From assembly GCA_964354495.1 (NCBI GenBank), contig CAYHAA010000001.1, forward strand, positions 427,049 to 459,048: a stretch of 32,000 nt of DNA, given 5' to 3'. Shown here one piece after another: positions 20,353 through 28,405 of the stretch. This stretch comes from an uncultured archaeon (GTDB lineage: Archaea > Asgardarchaeota > Thorarchaeia > Thorarchaeales > Thorarchaeaceae). The notes below the pieces were generated by a model. It was given only the letters and a program-made list of their open reading frames with translations, was not told where the DNA came from and did not search any database. Each line of letters starts with the position of its first letter. The first letter of the stretch is position 1. Both the position numbers and the translations under genes were made by a program.

Positions 20353-21276
20353 TTATTTGCGGTATGCTAGGTAGGATGCAATGACGACGCCAATGCCAAT
20401 AATGCTCATAATGATGAGCACAATCGTTGAATCCAAGACGAGAGCTGGCCAAAGGCTCACCGGCGTATGATCCGGGATTGCTCCTGGATACCAGACATTC
20501 AGTAGTGGCAACATCGGACCAATGAAGACTATGGAAAGCACAAGAAGAGAAAACGTCAGGGTATGAATTGCTGTGACGTATGTGTAGTACGGACGAATGT
20601 AGCTGTAGAACGAAAAAGCTGGGATTGATAATGCGGCCATCGCCATAATCTCGATAGGGTCGAAGAACAAAGGTATGGTGATTGGCCATAGAAAGTAGAA
20701 GAGAGTGGTTATCTTCGCACTTGATGTTTCGTGATGTGCGACCTTGTGTATCCCGTCCACGCCCTGCGCGAGGAAGAATACGGGCAGGAGGAGCCACCAC
20801 TGGAGGCCGACAAAGAACATTGGACCGGCATAGAAGAGAAGGTCTCCAACGCTCTCGACACGCTCCCAGAAGGGATTCCTTGAGAAGAACTCGGTAGCCT
20901 CGGTCATGAAGTATCCAAGCATTTGCATGGCGACAAGAATCGGCAACAAGAGGAATGAGATGATAATCATGATTGTGGCAGCTTTCGGAAGCTCAGGGAT
21001 TTTCCCCTCGTTGTAGTTATCTAGCGGATAAATGCCATGGAGCATGATTGCTACAGCCAAGAGCAGTAGCCCGCTTGGCACAAAGAACAGCGGTTGAAAT
21101 AGATACATCCAGACCCCAAAGATCTCATAGGCATTTCCAGCGTAGAAAGTGACTCCCAATGTTGGCATGAAATACCATACGCCAAAGACAACGAGCAGCT
21201 CCGGAATGAGCATCTTCAATCTGTAGTCCTGAACGAACTTCATTACCAATCCAGGTTCTTTCTTAGTTTCGTTCAT
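20353..21276 (-). CDS. Polytopic membrane protein (about 8 TM), function unknown
   Basis: 307 aa dominated by hydrophobic helices; no recognisable motif. Confidence 0.8.
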   Translation of the reverse strand: MNETKKEPGLVMKFVQDYRLKMLIPELLVVFGVWYFMPTLGVTFYAGNAYEIFGVWMYLFQPLFFVPSGLLLLAVAIMLHGIYPLDNYNEGKIPELPKAATIMIIISFLLLPILVAMQMLGYFMTEATEFFSRNPFWERVESVGDLLFYAGPMFFVGLQWWLLLPVFFLAQGVDGIHKVAHHETSSAKITTLFYFLWPITIPLFFDPIEIMAMAALSIPAFSFYSYIRPYYTYVTAIHTLTFSLLVLSIVFIGPMLPLLNVWYPGAIPDHTPVSLWPALVLDSTIVLIIMSIIGIGVVIASYLAYRK

Positions 21277-21346: not shown

Positions 21347-22369
21347 TTAACGAGTTAGTCTCTCAAGAACGTCTGTGAATTCTGATCTGAAGTAGGCGCT
21401 CTGCTCATGTATTTCCCGCGTCAAGGAAACGCTTGCTCCTGACAGACCGCATTGTGTTGAGAGCATTGTATTCCTCTCCACAAGGTCAATATCGATGCCG
21501 CTTCTAATCATCTTGCCCAAGGTTGTGGCAAGGCTGACTCTCAGCGTTTCTAACACTGAGCATGTGTACCCCTCATCTACATTTGGAAGCAGTCCCAGGG
21601 CGAGTCCGCCTCCTCTTTTCATGAAGTCGTTCACTTTCTCTGCCTGCTCCTCGTCTATGTCTGGGGGATATCTCAGCACATCAATGTGTGCCAACTTTGG
21701 CGAACTGTTCCACAGGAGAAACCAATCGTCCTTTCTCAGCTCACGCCAGTCACCGCAATAATGGAATGCAGGCACTACTCCAGAGGGGTAGATGGTATCC
21801 GTCTTTCCGAAAACCTGTTCAAGAGAGACATCGCTTGCCTGACCTGTTTCTATCATATTTCTGACGAACCCGAGGCTCGGATCATCTTGGCACAGAATAA
21901 TCGTTGTGCAGGACTTTTCGAGGTGCCTCAATTGACCCAGTGCTATTCTCGACATCAGGCGCACAAAAAAGTGGAACATACTTCTATTGAGCAGCTGCTT
22001 CCCATCTGAACCCCTGATACTGAAGCACATAGTGGCAGGCGCTGTCTGTTGTGTCTTGAAGTATCGATACTGCGTCCCATTCATCAACGAGTATAGGCTG
22101 GGCATGCATATGTCATCTGGCGCGAGAGGCTCATCCTCATTGGTGATATCCCTGTAGGTGTTGATATCAACGTCAAGAACGTACGCTCCCTCCTCCTCGT
22201 ACCCCTCGACAATAGCGCCGAACTGCCGAATCATGTCTTCCTCGCGAAACGCAGGCAGTTGAAATGCGTAGGGGAGTACTAGCTTCTTCATGTACTGCAT
22301 TGGCGAATCATGGTCCACTTCGCCTAGGCTGCCAACACCGAAGAAGTGACCTGCAAGTGCTTCAGGCAA
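21347..22369 (-). CDS. Core (catalytic-barrel-only) cobalamin-independent-type methionine synthase, MesB-like
   Basis: GVGSL, PYAFQLP, QDDPSL, FHYCG (HxC Zn ligands) and STQCGL; no folate-binding N-terminal barrel. TTG 22369 is preferred because the ORF-track start overlaps the upstream gene. Confidence 0.75.
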   Translation of the reverse strand: MPEALAGHFFGVGSLGEVDHDSPMQYMKKLVLPYAFQLPAFREEDMIRQFGAIVEGYEEEGAYVLDVDINTYRDITNEDEPLAPDDICMPSLYSLMNGTQYRYFKTQQTAPATMCFSIRGSDGKQLLNRSMFHFFVRLMSRIALGQLRHLEKSCTTIILCQDDPSLGFVRNMIETGQASDVSLEQVFGKTDTIYPSGVVPAFHYCGDWRELRKDDWFLLWNSSPKLAHIDVLRYPPDIDEEQAEKVNDFMKRGGGLALGLLPNVDEGYTCSVLETLRVSLATTLGKMIRSGIDIDLVERNTMLSTQCGLSGASVSLTREIHEQSAYFRSEFTDVLERLTR

Positions 22370-22383
22370 GATACTGGTCAGCG

Positions 22384-24108
22384 CTATGCACCTCTGGTTT
22401 CCCGGGCCTTTCGATGAATGACTTTGTTGCAGGACTGGGTGGCTGGGCAGCCCTCGCACAGATCAGGAACGTCTTCAATTGCCTGTTCACCTCCCCCAGA
22501 CAGCAAGACCTGCTCTGCAATCTCAGTTCCTGGAGATATTGCGGGCTCTTTCGCTGGTGATTCCCTCTTGACCATGCACTTCTGCCTTCGAAGGTATTCA
22601 CTGAATTGATTCATGTCCCCAGTGACGACTACCCCTGCTGGCCCCACTTTTCGGACGATGTAGGTGTTGAATTCTGGCAACAGCATTAGTTTCTCAAGGT
22701 CTCTTGCACTGTGAGTCTCAAATAACTGCACTTCACTGATACTGGTGAATGTTGTCTGAGAGGTCCAGTCGATGATTGACCTCTTGACGTTTTTCGGGAG
22801 TGGCTTGCTACTCTCCTTTTCAAGGAAACCAATCAGGTCTTCCTCTCGAGCACCTATTTCAATTGCTTCGAAGATCGATTTGTCAGTGATTCTGAAGGTG
22901 CTCACCACATCAGTTCGAACTGGTTCTGTCAGAAGCATGAGACGGTAGAGTTTCTGATATTCCATCTCGCTTGTGAATACTGTAATCTCAAAATTCGGCT
23001 GTACAAAGAAAGTTTCTCGGTTCTTTAAGACTGATGGCGAAGAGTAATCCTTGAGGACTCGGAGCCCTACATCAGTGAGTTTAATCCCGATGATCTTCTT
23101 TCCCTTATAGGCCGCTTCAACTAGACCAAGAAGCAATAGTGTTTCCAGAGCCATCTGCACCCTATCATTGTCCACTTGAATCCATTTCAGTGGCTGATTC
23201 TCTATGAACAACTCGCTTCTGATCCAATCACGTAGTTCCTCAATAGTGACCCAGTCCTCTTTTGCGTTCTCTCTGAGCCGGCATATCGCGAGATTCAGCG
23301 TGTATTCCGTTGGTTGATCGGGTGTTGCCCAGATTGCTCTTGTCCTACCCAGGATTGACTGGAGAAGTCGCCTCGCAACATGATGCTGCTCTCCACTGAA
23401 TAGGAGGTCGATTCTTGAGGCTAGCACCTTGTCTTCATCAACAATCGAGTAGGCCCCTAGCTTGCGAGCCAGTTTCTGAACCAGGTCGAACCTCTCATCG
23501 GTCTGTTTAGTCATTGACTCCCTGACCCGGTCCACGTCCCTCTTCGGAAACTCCCATGCAGATGTCATATGAACCTCGTTCTTTGCGACATAAGCAATGA
23601 GAAGGAGCATATCGACAATCAGAGCATCTCTCTCGTCTACGATGTTCTTTGCTTTGATGGTCTTCTCAGTCTGAGGAACTGGTTTGTCCTCAAAACACTC
23701 CTTCAGGTGTGGGATGAAGAAGTCAAGAACCTTGAACTCTGCCACTTCTCTGCCGTACTCTGTCAGTCTGCTCATCGTGCGTCTGACGATCACAGCCTTC
23801 TTGCGAAGGTCTCTCTCAGTCTGGTTGAGTTGACCGTAGCTGTAAATCTTTCTGAAGGGCTTAAGTCTGTCGTAGCTCATCGCACCTCCGCTAAGAGTCA
23901 GTATACCTAGGAGGTCCTTCTCCAAATCTGTGAATGTAGCAAAGACGCGATTTCTCTGACTACGATCTTTCATCCTTGCCGCGAGCATCTCAATCAAAGA
24001 AGAACCTGTGTCCTTGCCAGTGACATCGATTCCCCATAATTGACATGCAGAAAGCAAATCTTCTCTAAAGACATGCTCCAATTCCTTTTCTAGCGATTCT
24101 CTTGGCAT
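22384..24108 (-). CDS. XPB-partner protein with a helicase-associated (Helicase_C_3 / p52 clutch-like) domain; Tfb2/p52-like
   Basis: FFVQPNFEITVFT...FRITDKSIFEAIEIG...LIGFLEKES.KPLPKNVKRSIIDW is the helicase-associated domain. It is preceded by winged-helix-like segments and followed by a p8/HubA-like segment. Start is ATG 24108. Confidence 0.82.
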   Translation of the reverse strand: MPRESLEKELEHVFREDLLSACQLWGIDVTGKDTGSSLIEMLAARMKDRSQRNRVFATFTDLEKDLLGILTLSGGAMSYDRLKPFRKIYSYGQLNQTERDLRKKAVIVRRTMSRLTEYGREVAEFKVLDFFIPHLKECFEDKPVPQTEKTIKAKNIVDERDALIVDMLLLIAYVAKNEVHMTSAWEFPKRDVDRVRESMTKQTDERFDLVQKLARKLGAYSIVDEDKVLASRIDLLFSGEQHHVARRLLQSILGRTRAIWATPDQPTEYTLNLAICRLRENAKEDWVTIEELRDWIRSELFIENQPLKWIQVDNDRVQMALETLLLLGLVEAAYKGKKIIGIKLTDVGLRVLKDYSSPSVLKNRETFFVQPNFEITVFTSEMEYQKLYRLMLLTEPVRTDVVSTFRITDKSIFEAIEIGAREEDLIGFLEKESSKPLPKNVKRSIIDWTSQTTFTSISEVQLFETHSARDLEKLMLLPEFNTYIVRKVGPAGVVVTGDMNQFSEYLRRQKCMVKRESPAKEPAISPGTEIAEQVLLSGGGEQAIEDVPDLCEGCPATQSCNKVIHRKARETRGA

Positions 24109-24144
24109 TCTTACAACCCGAACCAGTAGTGCCCAATATGAGGC

Positions 24145-24262
24145 AAGCTCCGAACTTCTTATCATTTAAGGAGCTTTTGGTGTTGATGATTCTTATCCCA
24201 TGCATCTAGTTCCATTCAAGCAAGGGACTCGTTCCCTTGGAGAAACAAGCTTATCTTGTTTC
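24145..24262. promoter_or_regulatory. Divergent promoter region with three inverted repeats
   Basis: AAGCTCC-N18-GGAGCTT (24145-24176), CAAGGGA-N5-TCCCTTG (24221-24239) and GAAACAAG-N5-CTTGTTTC (24242-24262). Confidence 0.6.
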
Positions 24263-24288
24263 ATTGAAACGCTCTACCGGGTGTCAAC

Positions 24289-25401
24289 TTGGAGCCGCTC
24301 TTGTGGTGTATCAAATACCGGCCTAAATCGTGGGACGAGTTCGTGGGGCAGACATCGACCATCAATCATCTCAAGAACTTATCCAAGTCCGGGACATTGC
24401 CGAACATGATATTCTATGGCCCAACTGGAACAGGTAAGACATCTGCGGCCGAAGTGTTTTCGAGGGCAATTCTAGGTTCCAGCTTTGACGCTAACTTCAA
24501 GTCTCTGAATATACGGGACGTCTGGGACACCTCAATGACAGATGCAAAGAGAACAGTGCAAGACATTGCAAAACTCGATCGTGACAGACGTTCTGAGCTC
24601 GACGAATACATGTCCATAGTCTACAGAGAGGCTCAGTCTGCCTTGAAGCTGAGAGGGGAAACAAGTCCGCCAAACCGAAGCCAGCTTCTCCAAGAGGCCA
24701 TAAGATTCTTTGCCTCCACAAGTACAGTGGCCGATGAAAAGGTCAAGATTCTTGTTCTGGACGAGGCTGATGCTCTGAGTAATAGCATGCAACAAGCGCT
24801 TCGCCGCACGATGGAGCTCTACAGTGACGCGTGTCGTTTCATTCTACTGACTCCGACACTTTCAGGTTGGAGTCCGGCAGTCATCTCGAGATGCTCAGTG
24901 CTTAACTTTTCAGTGCCCGACAATGATGTCATTGCAGACTATGTACGCAGCATAGCGAAGAAGGAGGGCGTCACGATTGATATGGACGCGGCGTCAGCAA
25001 TTGCCCGGGAATGTTCGGGCGACCTGCGACGTGCACTCAACATACTGCAGATTGCCGCGGCAGCCAGTGATACCATAACTGAGGACACGGTATATGCACA
25101 CTCTCAGACACATCTCAGTCTTAGCATCCGCGAAGTAGTCACACTGACCATTGAAGGCTCCTTCGAGCCTGCACGCAAGAAGATGAGAAACCTCCTTGCC
25201 CTTGATGGCTACTCACCGCAGGACGTTCTTCTCGAGATTCAACGCGACCTTGTGAAACGTCCTTTTGATCAGAAAATGCTCAGCAAGGTTTTAGCAAGGG
25301 TGGCTGAAATTGATTACCGTATGACACAAGGCAAGAACTCGTTCATCCACCTGGAAGCCCTTCTTGCGTCCCTACGAGCATATGTGGCGGAAATTGCCTA
25401 G
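24289..25401 (+). CDS. rfcS: Replication factor C small subunit paralogue with a ~50-aa insertion
   Basis: W..KYRP, GPTGTGKT, ILVLDEADAL, QQALRRTME, SRC arginine finger, GDLRRALNILQ; TTG start. Confidence 0.93.
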   Translation: MEPLLWCIKYRPKSWDEFVGQTSTINHLKNLSKSGTLPNMIFYGPTGTGKTSAAEVFSRAILGSSFDANFKSLNIRDVWDTSMTDAKRTVQDIAKLDRDRRSELDEYMSIVYREAQSALKLRGETSPPNRSQLLQEAIRFFASTSTVADEKVKILVLDEADALSNSMQQALRRTMELYSDACRFILLTPTLSGWSPAVISRCSVLNFSVPDNDVIADYVRSIAKKEGVTIDMDAASAIARECSGDLRRALNILQIAAAASDTITEDTVYAHSQTHLSLSIREVVTLTIEGSFEPARKKMRNLLALDGYSPQDVLLEIQRDLVKRPFDQKMLSKVLARVAEIDYRMTQGKNSFIHLEALLASLRAYVAEIA

Positions 25402-25706
25402 CGGATTGGTTCAATATCATTTTTGAACTGAACTTTGTCCTCCAGCGCGCACAACAGATTCAGAGGAAGAGACTGTTTATCATATAAGAACTGCGCAAGA
25501 ATGCTATCCTCTTTGAGAGATACCATTCCGTTCTTGACAGCTGCAGTAAGCATCTTTCGTACATCTGTGGGAGCACCATACCTGCATTTGAAAGACAGGA
25601 AGTCAACAGCATCGATAACTGACACAGGACTGCCCCTCATTCTGAAAAGGTGTGCCAAGACCAAAAGCATGTCTCTCCCGTTCACAAATTTGGCATGTGT
25701 CGACAT
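25398..25706 (-). CDS. DUF2240-like small archaeal protein
   Basis: The pattern LAHLFRMRG...FLSFKCRYGAPTDVRKMLTAAVKNGMV...PLNL resembles DUF2240. Start is ATG 25706; the stop overlaps the rfcS stop. Confidence 0.65.
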   Translation of the reverse strand: MSTHAKFVNGRDMLLVLAHLFRMRGSPVSVIDAVDFLSFKCRYGAPTDVRKMLTAAVKNGMVSLKEDSILAQFLYDKQSLPLNLLCALEDKVQFKNDIEPIR

Positions 25707-25740
25707 CCTTTTAGTAGTTATTGTGAGATGTGAAACTGAG

Positions 25741-26697
25741 ATGATGAGGCATCCCATTGGATTGATTCATGGGCATACTACAGAGCAATTACAGCATCTG
25801 CTATACAACTCCTGTCCACTCATTGGGGCGGACGTCGTTCTCGACTCAACAATAATCGGTGGCTGGTCGAACATCAATATACGTGGCGTTTCTCATGAAT
25901 GTGAATTTGTTATCAAGTTGCCATGGTCAATAAGGCAATTCGCCGACAATCCATACTCACGCCTACACAACCTACTCACCTTTCTACACAAGTCCGCTAT
26001 CACAACATCACCTTTAGCTGTTGGGCGGCTGAACGACAAGAATGAAACTCCGTTCATGCTTCTCAAGTACTCGAGGGGCAAAGCGCGTTCCTCCATTAGC
26101 GATTTCTCTGCAGACGAACTGCTGTCTCTCAAAGACACTCTTCACAGACTGTCACTACAGAGACCGCCTGGTCTACGACAATATAAGACGCCACTTGACT
26201 ACTTGATGGAACTGCATGACAGAATTGCATATCATGAAACCCTCTCAGTCAGTCGGCCAAAAGTACCGAACCTATTGAGTGCTTTCTCGAAGCAATATGC
26301 TCGGCTTTGCCCTAGAGTCGAGACTCTTGATGAGTGGTCTGGAACAACAATGCATGGCGATCTCTGGGAGCCAAACATCCTACTTCAAGAGCGAAGAGCA
26401 ATACTGCTTGACATGGAGTCTTGCTCCTATGGTGATCCAATCTTTGATTTGGCCTATCTGTTAGAAGCATCAGACAATCTGCCTCTGAAAGAACCACCGC
26501 TTCTTCTCTATGGTGATACTATTGAGCGTGTGAATCCACTGAGAGATGTTGCACTGATGTCTGTCATCAGTTGGTCATTAGACAGGCTTCTCTTCATGGA
26601 CGCAGGTTTCGCTGAGCCATGTTTCAACTCTACTGCGATCAGGGCTGACATCATCGGTTATGTACGTACTAAACTCTCCCGTCTGGTTTCCACTTGA
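25741..26697 (+). CDS. Aminoglycoside phosphotransferase / choline kinase-like protein
   Basis: GGWSNIN glycine loop, FVIKLP, HGDLWEPNIL, LLDME, GDPIFDLAY. The ORF-track N-terminal 102 aa overlap DUF2240 on the opposite strand and are probably not translated. Confidence 0.85.
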   Translation: MMRHPIGLIHGHTTEQLQHLLYNSCPLIGADVVLDSTIIGGWSNINIRGVSHECEFVIKLPWSIRQFADNPYSRLHNLLTFLHKSAITTSPLAVGRLNDKNETPFMLLKYSRGKARSSISDFSADELLSLKDTLHRLSLQRPPGLRQYKTPLDYLMELHDRIAYHETLSVSRPKVPNLLSAFSKQYARLCPRVETLDEWSGTTMHGDLWEPNILLQERRAILLDMESCSYGDPIFDLAYLLEASDNLPLKEPPLLLYGDTIERVNPLRDVALMSVISWSLDRLLFMDAGFAEPCFNSTAIRADIIGYVRTKLSRLVST

Positions 26698-26698
26698 G

Positions 26699-28405
26699 CT
26701 AAACAAAGAAACTCTCAGGTGGCTTTTCCCACACGTTTTCATCGGCTGAAGCGATTACGTACTGATAGCCCTGCTCAGTGAGAAACAACTGACGCTTTGC
26801 TGCGAAATCCATGTCTCTAGTATCCTTCGTAACAAGCGAGTAGAATCTGGCAAAGCTGCCATCCGTCTTCGGTCGGAGGATTCTCCCCAGACGTTGTGCT
26901 TCCTCCTGCCGCGACCCGAACGTTCCTGAAACTTGGATTGCGACATTCGCATCTGGCAAGTCGATTGCGAAGTTGGCAACCTTTGATACAATGAGTATCT
27001 TCTCAACTCCCCTGCGGAAGTCGGCATAGAGTCGCTCTCTTTCTTCATTACTAGTCTTACCCGTGATCAAAGGAGCTTCAACGTCTTTGGCAATGATACC
27101 AAGCTGATCGAGATACATACCAATGACAAGGACATTGTCATTCCTGTGATGTGCAAGTATCTTCTGGATTATATCCAGCTTCTCTGGATTCTCTGCAGCA
27201 ATCCTGTACTTCTTCCGGTCTTCTGCAATCGCGTATTGTCTTCTCATACTATCTGGAAGGTCCAGTCTTATCTCGTAACAGATGGCTGTGGCGATCCATC
27301 CCTGGTCTTCCAACAATTTCCAAGGCATGTCAAATCGTTTTGGTCCAATGAGGCTAAAGACATCCTCTTCCTTTCCGTCCTCTCGTACCAGCGTCGCCGT
27401 GAGACCCAACCTTCTGGTTGCCTGGATCGAGGCTGTCGCTCTGAACACAGGTGCTGGAAGTAAGTGTACTTCATCATAGATCAAGAGACCCCAATTCCTT
27501 GCCTCGAAGATCTTGAAGTGTTCGAACTCCAAATCCCGGGATCTGCGCCAGGTCAAGATTTGATATGTTGCAACTGTGACAGGACGAACCTCTTTGATAT
27601 CACCAGTGTATTCGCCTATATCCTCGGGTCTGAGCGTCGTCTTATCCAAGAGTTCCTGAATCCACTGCCTTACAGCGACAACATTCGGACAGAGGATCAG
27701 TGTCGATGTCTGAAGTCTTTGCATGGCGCCAATTCCCACCATGGTCTTCCCAGCACCGCAAGGTAGGACGACAACACCGGATCCCCCTCGTTCGCCTCCT
27801 CCAGCATAGAATGTGGCCACTGAATCTTCTTGATAGGTTCTAAGCCTCCAAGGCCTACCACTAAGAGTGTTGGTGCGAAGTTCAAAGGTGAGTTGCTCGC
27901 CCTCAATGTAACCTGCTATATCTTCTACAGGATGACCAATCTCAATCAGAGCTTGTTTGACAAATCCTCTCTGTGTTTCATCTACTTTGAATGTGAGCTC
28001 ATTCACTCTATCGAGTATATACTGCGTAATCTTCGTGTTTGCCCAGATCTCTTCTGCCAGATCCTGGTTCTCGCACAGAAGCAGAAGGTCGGAGCCCTCC
28101 TTGTAGAGTGAGAGTTGTCCATACCTTGACATGTAGTCGACGATTTCTCTGGAGATGTTTGCCGGAATTGGGTACTTCGCGAACTGCTCTAGGGCTGCTA
28201 TGACCTCATCAGGTGTCATTCCCATAGCCGCAGCATTCCATAGACTCAGGGGAGATATCTTGTACGTGTGGACGTATTCCGGGCTTTTCACTAGTTCAGC
28301 AAAACGTGCTAGAGAGTCCCTTGCATCCGCGTAGAGAGGATTGTCTACTTCCAGCAGCACTGATTTATCTGACTGGACTATTAGCGGATTGCTTGTCTTT
28401 GCCAT
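26699..28405 (-). CDS. xpb: XPB/Rad25/Ssl2 SF2 DNA translocase, long form with an N-terminal helicase-associated domain
   Basis: NPLIVQSD...TYKISPLSLWNA N-terminal domain, LPCGAGKT, DEVH, TATLVREDG (RED motif), QRLGRILR, KRQLFLTEQGY. Confidence 0.96.
   Translation of the reverse strand: MAKTSNPLIVQSDKSVLLEVDNPLYADARDSLARFAELVKSPEYVHTYKISPLSLWNAAAMGMTPDEVIAALEQFAKYPIPANISREIVDYMSRYGQLSLYKEGSDLLLLCENQDLAEEIWANTKITQYILDRVNELTFKVDETQRGFVKQALIEIGHPVEDIAGYIEGEQLTFELRTNTLSGRPWRLRTYQEDSVATFYAGGGERGGSGVVVLPCGAGKTMVGIGAMQRLQTSTLILCPNVVAVRQWIQELLDKTTLRPEDIGEYTGDIKEVRPVTVATYQILTWRRSRDLEFEHFKIFEARNWGLLIYDEVHLLPAPVFRATASIQATRRLGLTATLVREDGKEEDVFSLIGPKRFDMPWKLLEDQGWIATAICYEIRLDLPDSMRRQYAIAEDRKKYRIAAENPEKLDIIQKILAHHRNDNVLVIGMYLDQLGIIAKDVEAPLITGKTSNEERERLYADFRRGVEKILIVSKVANFAIDLPDANVAIQVSGTFGSRQEEAQRLGRILRPKTDGSFARFYSLVTKDTRDMDFAAKRQLFLTEQGYQYVIASADENVWEKPPESFFV

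Follow-up and report, generated by a model that had tools for sequence, protein, structure and literature searches.

A long-form XPB and a p52-like partner protein at a conserved locus in Thorarchaeia

Does an Asgard archaeon that encodes a long-form XPB translocase close to a protein resembling the p52 (Tfb2) subunit of TFIIH carry a forerunner of the eukaryotic assembly, or its own version of something more widespread? The question is raised by a window of 32,000 nucleotides from an uncultured member of the Thorarchaeaceae, which lies at C1:427049-459048 (contig C1) of a 3.3-Mb genome with a completeness of 97.7%. Positions 22384-28405 of the window hold five genes, in alternating orientation: the p52-like gene, a paralogue of the replication factor C (RFC) small subunit, a gene for a 95-residue protein, an APH-like gene and the XPB gene. 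The p52-like and XPB genes are both on the minus strand with a gap of 2.5 kb between them. An earlier note on this DNA had read the locus as a candidate proto-TFIIH cluster of long-form XPB, a full p52-like partner and a variant RFC subunit. We find a narrower reading probable, in which long-form XPB and a full-length p52 homologue make up a two-protein DNA-translocase module that is widespread in prokaryotes and is present here in its Thorarchaeial form.

XPB and its p52-like neighbour

The XPB of the window is laid out as an N-terminal clutch-type domain, a DRD-like linker and two RecA lobes. It matches the NCBIfam model NF045503 (repair_heli_XPB) at 860.6 bits (cut-off 610) over profile positions 1-547 of 548, and the rad25 model TIGR00603 at 364.5 bits (cut-off 328.7). 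When compared with PDB chains, it reached 303 bits with yeast Rad25 and 281 bits with human XPB over residues 4-552, and 125-156 bits with the short XPBs of Archaeoglobus and Sulfurisphaera. It is the sole long XPB of the genome and belongs to the same family as the bacterial long-form XPB (Mycobacterium tuberculosis Rv0861c; NF045503). Eukaryotic XPB, at 782 residues, has N- and C-terminal extensions and a DRD insert that the 568-residue Thorarchaeial protein lacks. The earlier note had recognised the long form by its N-terminal domain and by a KRQLFLTEQGY motif. Both are present, with Helicase_C_3 at residues 8-134 and the NF045503 match running full length; since the motif is also found in bacterial and Methanosarcinales XPBs, it is not a eukaryote-specific mark.

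As a mechanical open reading frame (ORF), the partner gene runs from 22384 to 24165 on the minus strand and encodes 593 residues, being 19 codons longer at the 5′ end than the gene that we accept. Homologues have 572-575 residues, their alignment begins at residue 18-20, and the nearest relatives have stops within the first 19 codons. These features place the start at M20, so that the extent given in the earlier note (22384-24108, 574 residues) is right. That note had also put the XPB, partner and RFC-like genes where we find them, and had seen in the partner the same domain type as at the XPB N-terminus. The likeness is borne out by a Helicase_C_3 match above the cut-off (residues 387-470 of the 593-residue ORF; E 4.7e-11) and by a BLASTP alignment of the XPB N-terminal domain with the partner clutch (32% identity over 50 residues; E 2e-9).

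The wider relationships of the partner were explored with profiles. A PDB search with the single sequence returned XPB N-terminal domains only (E about 1), and an exhaustive HMMER search collected 1,135 relatives, mostly of 500-900 residues, that match chiefly residues 325-530. The clutch and the C-terminal domain are the best conserved stretch of the family, and the clutch motifs VQPNFEI and PLPKNV..DW are kept across 79 homologues. A mixed profile made from 79 relatives found yeast TFB2 in three collinear segments (E 4.5e-7), Chaetomium p52 (E 1e-5; profile 259-436 aligned to residues 144-328) and human p52 (E 1.5e-3), together with XPB N-terminal domains (E 1e-5).

The comparison with p52 was then made at the level of the fold, using an AlphaFold (AF2) model built on the relatives' alignment (predicted local distance difference test, pLDDT, 88; predicted template modelling score, pTM, 0.81). 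With Foldseek against the PDB, the top 20 matches were all p52/TFB2 chains of human and yeast TFIIH (E 7e-12 to 4e-5), in alignments that span about 520-560 columns. Against Swiss-Prot, residues 1-510 of the query were aligned to p52/TFB2 of mammals, Arabidopsis, Dictyostelium and eight fungi (full-length PDB and Swiss-Prot matches taken together, E 7e-12 to 1e-9), reaching from 14 to 459 of the 462 residues of human p52; the sole better match was a bacterial relative, TP_0022 of Treponema. VIA-align gave Z values of 13-14.6 with full p52 chains, with 366-387 residues aligned (269 of 289 residues for 7nvv chain 2), and the full-length alignments reach p52 residues 458-461. The structure-based alignment takes in the clutch, the winged helix before it and the C-terminal domain, which are the three regions in which the earlier note had aligned the partner with human p52, and both the domains and their order correspond between the model and p52. 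The partner clutch (residues 360-456) also superposes on human and yeast XPB N-terminal domains, with VIA Z of 15-16 and a root-mean-square deviation (rmsd) of 1.4-2.4 Å over 92-95 residues, whilst the best single-domain matches of the winged-helix array are MarR-like (Z about 10-11). As modelled, the partner appears to be a full-length structural homologue of p52/Tfb2, beyond the clutch alone, and on this point the earlier note's description of a full p52-like partner holds.

The C-terminal domain that follows the clutch is, in the model, likely to be the counterpart of the p8-binding domain of p52; the corresponding part of the profile has weak Tfb5 matches only (E about 0.6-0.8). Beyond it the Thorarchaeial proteins have a tail whose cysteines (C511, C551-x2-C554 and C560 in the 574-residue numbering) may form a small zinc site. 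The p52 of TFIIH is about 110 residues shorter and lacks this Cys-bearing tail.

Distribution and affinities of the pair

To see how the two genes travel together, we used an ungapped scan for the motif VQPNFE[IV] in one genome per GTDB species, which returned 120 loci outside Thorarchaeia. A true p52-like ORF was present in 110 of the 120, from 15 bacterial phyla and, within Methanobacteriota, from Methanophagales/ANME-1 and Methanosarcinales. XPB fell within the same 8-kb piece in half of these (55/110). Of the 14 loci whose piece extends 2.2 kb or more both ways, 13 have XPB in it. The XPB gene was co-oriented with the p52-like gene in 52 of 55 cases, mostly within a few hundred bases. The neighbourhood is conserved across no fewer than 12 bacterial phyla and in a few lineages of archaea, and adjacency with co-orientation on this scale speaks strongly, at the level of gene neighbourhood, for XPB and the p52-like protein working together. 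By predicted structure and profile the Thorarchaeial protein is a p52 homologue; by conserved neighbourhood it is a partner of XPB.

The bacterial protein beside XPB, annotated as 'helicase-associated domain-containing protein', belongs to the family of the Thorarchaeial partner and has the motifs VQPNFEI and PLPQNV..DW. There are differences nonetheless. The bacterial genes are usually adjacent and co-oriented, whereas the Thorarchaeial pair is split by three lineage-specific genes; and the bacterial partners are often 650-900 residues long, some with a WYL domain, whereas the Thorarchaeial partner has 574 residues and no WYL.

Within the Asgard phylum (400 genomes), the partner with Helicase_C_3 occurs in 82-83 of the 85 genomes of the window's own family and in the one genome of its sister family, and in none of the 314 other Asgard genomes, which represent 31 families. 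When the 79-sequence profile was run on the 189 Asgard genomes that are at least 90% complete, a clutch-bearing protein was again found only in the two Thorarchaeial families. The other Asgard families have short XPBs of about 440-480 residues; those that were fetched have no N-terminal domain and score 97-166 bits against the Thorarchaeial XPB. A few Thorarchaeial genomes have a short-form XPB in addition to the long form (genome, contig and positions: G313:C4:9765-10118, G319:C63:12986-13333 and G323:C202:105-500), and the two of these that were fetched group in the XPB tree with the short XPBs of other Asgard families.

Sequence comparison placed the Thorarchaeial XPB close to other prokaryotic long forms: it shares 58% identity with a Planctomycetaceae XPB, in an alignment of 554 residues with zero gaps, and 62% with a Methanosarcinales XPB, both of which have the motif as KRQLFL.EQGY, and all XPBs tested match NF045503 full length at 774-880 bits. 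Trees of prokaryotic sequences were built for both proteins, the XPB tree being rooted on short Asgard XPBs. In the XPB tree the Thorarchaeial sequences are monophyletic (98), sister to the Methanosarcinales sequence (85) and near Chloroflexia and Planctomycetota (88). In the partner tree all the archaeal sequences (Thorarchaeia, ANME-1, Methanosarcinales, one from Thermoplasmata and one from a "Euryarchaeota" metagenome-assembled genome) fall in a single clade (99), next to which stands a Chloroflexia group (88). The two trees are congruent in placing Thorarchaeia with Methanosarcinales/ANME-1, near Chloroflexia.

Affinity to eukaryotes was gauged by proxy, from scores against eukaryote-derived models and PDB chains. 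With TIGR00603, Thorarchaeial XPBs gave 364 and 389 bits, Methanosarcinales XPB 363 bits, seven bacterial XPBs 328-371 bits and the planctomycete XPB 342 bits; with the yeast and human PDB chains the scores were 303 and 281 bits (Thorarchaeial), 303 and 288 bits (Methanosarcinales) and 273 and 277 bits (planctomycete). On the partner side, Pfam Tfb2 gave 15-17 bits with the Thorarchaeial proteins, 38 bits with a Thermoplasmata relative and 20-27 bits with some other relatives, one of them bacterial (Bacillota). Judged by these scores, which put them no nearer to eukaryotes than bacterial copies, the Thorarchaeial proteins appear to have no special eukaryotic affinity. The patchy archaeal and broad bacterial distribution, together with the high cross-domain identity, points to horizontal exchange: the pair has most likely been exchanged among bacteria and a few archaeal lineages rather than inherited along the line to eukaryotes. 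The distribution shows that the XPB-p52 pairing predates eukaryotes; it does not imply that eukaryotes acquired it from Asgard archaea.

Parts of this picture have precedents. Méheust et al. (2022, BMC Biol 20:154; PMC9258230) described a 'TFIIH-like gene cluster' (fam18955) in three Asgard and three Theionarchaea genomes, with a family annotated as ERCC3 that has distant RAD25 homology, adjoins an RFC small-subunit gene and shows 20-23% identity to Theionarchaea. An identity that low fits the p52-like gene and not XPB, so that fam18955 would be the p52-like gene and the cluster is probably of the Thorarchaeial locus type. There, however, the family was read as RAD25-like and not as p52, and the separate XPB, the bacterial operons and the restriction to Thorarchaeia went unreported. 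According to a 2012 paper on M. tuberculosis XPB, bacterial homologues of p52 had not been found (PMC3353954), and a 2026 review describes archaea as having no TFIIH-like assembly, with XPB paired to Bax1 (PMC13024598). In the searchable literature, outside which most subscription journals lie, we found no paper that joins Asgard, XPB and p52, and none on Rv0862c or Helicase_C_3 that gives the p52 relationship. The finding is an archaeal variant of a module barely described in the literature.

A proposed two-protein motor and its alternatives

The structures of XPB-p52-p8 in TFIIH (Ssl2-Tfb2-Tfb5; PDB 6NMI, 7NVV, 6TRS and 8EBS) offer an analogy for how the Thorarchaeial pair may work. Their XPB likewise joins an N-terminal clutch-type domain to a RecA core, and p52 has the domain order predicted for the partner, i.e. 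winged helices, clutch and a small C-terminal alpha/beta domain. By this analogy the partner clutch would pair through its beta-sheet with the XPB N-terminal domain to give a pseudo-symmetric heterodimer; the C-terminal domain would lie against RecA2, where it could tune ATPase and translocase activity; and the winged-helix array could anchor the motor to DNA or to another factor. As no p8 is detectable, the C-terminal domain may work by itself or as a homodimer. The likely role would be DNA opening in the repair of bulky or stalling lesions, in place of the archaeal XPB-Bax1 pair. The latter likewise combines an XPB-family motor with a dedicated partner and is presumed to act in excision-type repair, but its XPB is short and its partner a nuclease, whereas the Thorarchaeial XPB is long and its partner has no detected nuclease domain.

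The rest of the genome was searched for what might complete either system. Bax1 (PF05626, DUF790) had no match in the genome, whilst the controls Haloferax, Sulfolobus and Methanosarcina all matched; the absence noticed earlier at the locus extends to the whole 97.7%-complete assembly. Two XPD-family genes lie elsewhere in the genome. Tfb5/p8 had no Pfam match in it, no free-standing copy of the partner C-terminal domain was found by hidden Markov model among 39,367 six-frame ORFs, Tfb4/p34 had no match, and the best candidate for Ssl1/p44 (E 0.118) was in a frame with three stop codons. Of the TFIIH parts that the earlier note had proposed looking for, then, XPD-family genes are present, whereas p8, p34 and a credible p44 are not found. 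TFIIH differs from the Thorarchaeial system in having p8, p34 and p44, and an XPB-partner contact in Thorarchaeia is inferred by analogy with it. The genome holds a two-protein XPB lobe, not a TFIIH core.

Several observations weigh against the two-protein module as we describe it. From sequence alone the p52 case would be thin: Pfam Tfb2 (PF03849) gives the partner 14.7 bits against a cut-off of 34.5, and over profile positions 241-356, the last third, only; and a Thorarchaea-only profile run against the PDB recovers XPB N-terminal domains and no p52 chain at E≤1. Global superposition of the partner model on TFIIH p52 is also poor (TM-scores 0.26-0.42, rmsd about 20 Å), since the relative orientation of the domains in the model is not that seen in TFIIH. 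Within TFIIH, p52 contacts p34 (a vWA protein) and p62 through its N-terminal part and p8 through its C-terminal part, and p34 and p8 are among the subunits not found in the genome. In Thorarchaeia the XPB and partner genes do not form an operon, having three alternating-strand genes between them, and the bacterial sample, drawn through a single motif, is biased. The view of horizontal transfer is based on distribution and similarity. Nesting of the Thorarchaeial XPB within bacteria, weakly supported in the quick tree (85-88), gains no support from the approximately unbiased (AU) test, in which a tree uniting all bacteria is not rejected and even fares slightly better (p 0.65); we therefore do not claim such nesting, and transfer may have run either way. 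The earlier note's caveat, that similar pairs exist in bacteria and that the pair might have been acquired horizontally, is the better-supported side, but not in the form of a bacterial nesting.

An alternative is that the archaeal ancestor of eukaryotes possessed the XPB-p52 module and passed it vertically to the corresponding lobe of TFIIH, whilst the other Asgard lineages lost it; the linked RFC paralogue would then hint at an early coupling of DNA opening and clamp loading. We regard such a proto-TFIIH in the eukaryotic stem lineage as the less likely reading, and indeed as improbable. In its favour, the organism is an Asgard archaeon, its partner is predicted to match p52 along the full length, the archaeal p52-like proteins form one clade (99) and a separate bacterial XPB clade is not rejected. 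The Thorarchaeial XPB is, moreover, about twice as close to eukaryotic XPB (303 bits) as to the short archaeal XPBs in the PDB (125-156 bits), and the short Asgard XPBs are themselves distant from it (97-166 bits). Against this, the Thorarchaeial copies are no nearer to eukaryotic XPB than bacterial copies are, and the pair was not found in any of the 314 non-Thorarchaeial Asgard genomes, across 31 families; on these two counts a special tie to the eukaryotic lineage is not supported. Vertically inherited archaeal and bacterial orthologues usually have identities far below the 58%, ungapped, seen here with a bacterial XPB. With Pfam Tfb2, too, the Thermoplasmata relative (38 bits) and some unplaced relatives score above the 15 bits of the Thorarchaeial protein, and no p8, p34 or credible p44 was found in the genome. 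What remains of the proto-TFIIH proposal is the full p52-like fold and the pairing with XPB; RFC membership and the eukaryotic tie are not supported.

Two further explanations concern what the proteins do. The partner might be chiefly a regulator or sensor that binds DNA, a multi-winged-helix protein recruiting or gating XPB at particular sites or upon a damage signal in the manner of PafBC-type WYL regulators, and not an allosteric activator of the XPB ATPase like p52. Its 345 N-terminal residues are winged-helix, with best single-domain matches to MarR/ArsR-type repressors; relatives such as P0129 have a C-terminal WYL domain and the mixed profile matches PafBC and WYL proteins; and p34, which together with p62 binds the winged-helix domains of p52 in TFIIH, is not found. 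We nevertheless give this little credence. WYL is absent from the Thorarchaeial protein, the clutch and C-terminal domain, through which p52 acts on XPB in TFIIH, are the most conserved region of the family, and regulation and ATPase activation can coexist. Alternatively, all five genes could make up one Thorarchaeial repair-synthesis unit in which, for example, DNA opening is coupled to clamp loading, which we consider rather unlikely. Their order is identical in 14 of 14 genomes from two families, although between these families the identity of the RFC paralogue and of the partner is no more than 33-34%; the RFC paralogue is an extra copy beside canonical RFC-S with intact ATPase motifs; and its adjacency was remarked on by Méheust et al. 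(PMC9258230). This evidence, however, comes from one lineage and so amounts to one evolutionary event, RFC-like, APH-like and small winged-helix neighbours occur at none of the 120 non-Thorarchaeial loci, second RFC-small paralogues exist in other Asgard families without XPB or a p52-like protein, and genes that alternate in strand are not co-transcribed.

If the two-protein module is the right reading, then a full-length p52 homologue accompanies long-form XPB in many bacteria as well as in an Asgard archaeon, which makes the XPB-p52 partnership older than TFIIH; it was probably taken into TFIIH as a ready-made pair. A two-protein system free of the other eight TFIIH subunits would serve as a model for control of the XPB motor by the clutch and C-terminal domain, which is disturbed in trichothiodystrophy and xeroderma pigmentosum group B (XP-B). 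That the pair is confined to Thorarchaeia among Asgard archaea and lies close to bacterial copies also counsels caution against taking every eukaryote-like Asgard gene as ancestral.

Features of the locus and related proteins

Table 1. Genes and domains at the Thorarchaeial XPB locus (positions in the window)
Feature	Position	Strand	Basis and remarks
p52/Tfb2-like XPB partner, 574 aa starting at M20; coordinates include the stop codon	22384..24108	-	AF2 model, Foldseek, VIA-align, profile
Partner N-terminal helical segment and winged-helix array, aa 1-345	23074..24108	-	Model secondary structure; collinear with p52 ~26-300
Partner clutch, aa 360-456	22741..23031	-	VIA-align, Pfam Helicase_C_3, motifs VQPNFEI and PLPKNV..DW
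Partner C-terminal beta-alpha-beta-beta-alpha domain, aa 457-512	22573..22740	-	Model elements E461-464, H468-481, E484-495, H499-508
Thorarchaea-specific partner tail, low confidence (pLDDT 36-58), cysteines C511, C551, C554, C560	22387..22572	-	Cysteines conserved without exception in 21 Thorarchaeial sequences
Extra diverged RFC small-subunit paralogue, 370 aa	24289..25401	+	Rep_fac_C, AAA and lid domains; divergent from partner gene
Insert in RFC paralogue, about 48 aa	24523..24690	+	Takes the place of the loop that follows the P-loop helix in canonical RFC small subunits
95-aa winged-helix protein, GTG start	25398..25685	-	Same position in 12/14 Thorarchaeial loci; AF2 pLDDT 85.6
APH/choline-kinase-like phosphotransferase, about 318 aa from MMRHP	25741..26697	+	Pfam APH E 1e-12; syntenic in 14/14 Thorarchaeial loci
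Long-form XPB translocase, 568 aa	26699..28405	-	NF045503, TIGR00603, Pfam ERCC3_RAD25_C, ResIII, Helicase_C
XPB N-terminal domain, aa 8-134	28004..28384	-	Pfam Helicase_C_3, E 1.9e-33

In all 14 Thorarchaeial genomes sampled, the sister family included, the RFC paralogue, the small winged-helix gene (seen in 12 of them) and the kinase-like gene follow the partner gene in this order, and XPB comes last. The three intervening genes would have been inserted between the partners in the Thorarchaeial ancestor.

The Rep_fac_C, AAA and lid domains of the RFC paralogue score above the Pfam cut-offs, and the motifs GPTGTGKT (Walker A), DEAD and SRC are intact. The protein falls below both cut-offs for RFC small subunits, with 269.4 bits for NF001679 (303) and 250.7 bits for NF009067 (317). 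Like archaeal RFC small subunit 2 (NF009067/PRK12402), to which its residues 5-363 align at positions 4-337 of 340, it is a second copy beside the canonical subunit, which is encoded on another contig (C6); it differs in being fast-evolving, with 33% identity between Thorarchaeial families. Second RFC-small paralogues elsewhere in Asgard archaea have about 30% identity to it and occur without XPB or a p52-like protein; those of one family (f22) align with it full length at about that identity. The earlier note had counted RFC as a member of the module. The linkage of RFC and XPB is specific to Thorarchaeia, there being no RFC-like neighbour at any of the 120 loci outside, and functional coupling to clamp loading is possible, without independent co-occurrence.

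The model of the 95-residue protein has three helices and a hairpin, with generic winged-helix matches and no PDB match at E≤0.001. We considered it as a p8 analogue or as the ARCD domain of Rpa1 and rejected both, the fold being a generic winged helix and the match to DUF2240/ARCD (Rpa1 N-terminal domain) marginal (E 9e-4). Its gene covers the 5′ part of the mechanical 420-residue ORF of the APH-like gene, so that the APH-like protein probably starts at 25741. The APH-like gene converges on XPB, with the two stop codons 2 nt apart.

Downstream of the p52-like gene lie two genes without a Pfam match, 21347-22459(-) and 20353-21276(-). Language-model look-alikes of the former point to a MetE/URO-D-like barrel; the latter has weak look-alikes only (≤0.84), the best being a putative beta-carotene 15,15′-monooxygenase and a membrane-protein family. 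Their synteny is kept in most Thorarchaeial genomes and a tie to DNA metabolism is not apparent. Both were considered as a missing nuclease and rejected, the look-alikes being no more than leads and Pfam giving no match. An anti-phage defence role was likewise set aside: PADLOC was blank for the partner and found only generic helicase similarity for XPB (PbeA, 86 bits), and the order-wide Thorarchaeial synteny of the locus argues against a variable defence-island context.

Some relatives of the partner differ in architecture. P0129 (Euryarchaeota archaeon ADurb.Bin023) and others end in a WYL domain, and the family profile also matches PafBC/WYL and BrxR proteins in the PDB, which suggests a partner variant, in the WYL-ended relatives, that senses a ligand or damage. 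The helical segment and first winged helix (profile positions 1 to 135-145) also begin otherwise different proteins of non-Thorarchaeial Asgard archaea (E 2e-15 to 2.5e-10; G006:C137:624-1046, G308:C4:950374-950799, G158:C222:42491-42892 and G001:C29:2977-3387), and this shared segment looks like a mobile N-terminal module. Lastly, in two Thorarchaeial genomes a diverged p52-like paralogue is encoded elsewhere than at the main locus, in addition to the copy there (G353:C33:1186-2541 and G326:C528:1194-2498), which matches the family profile with about 117 bits over positions 146-533.

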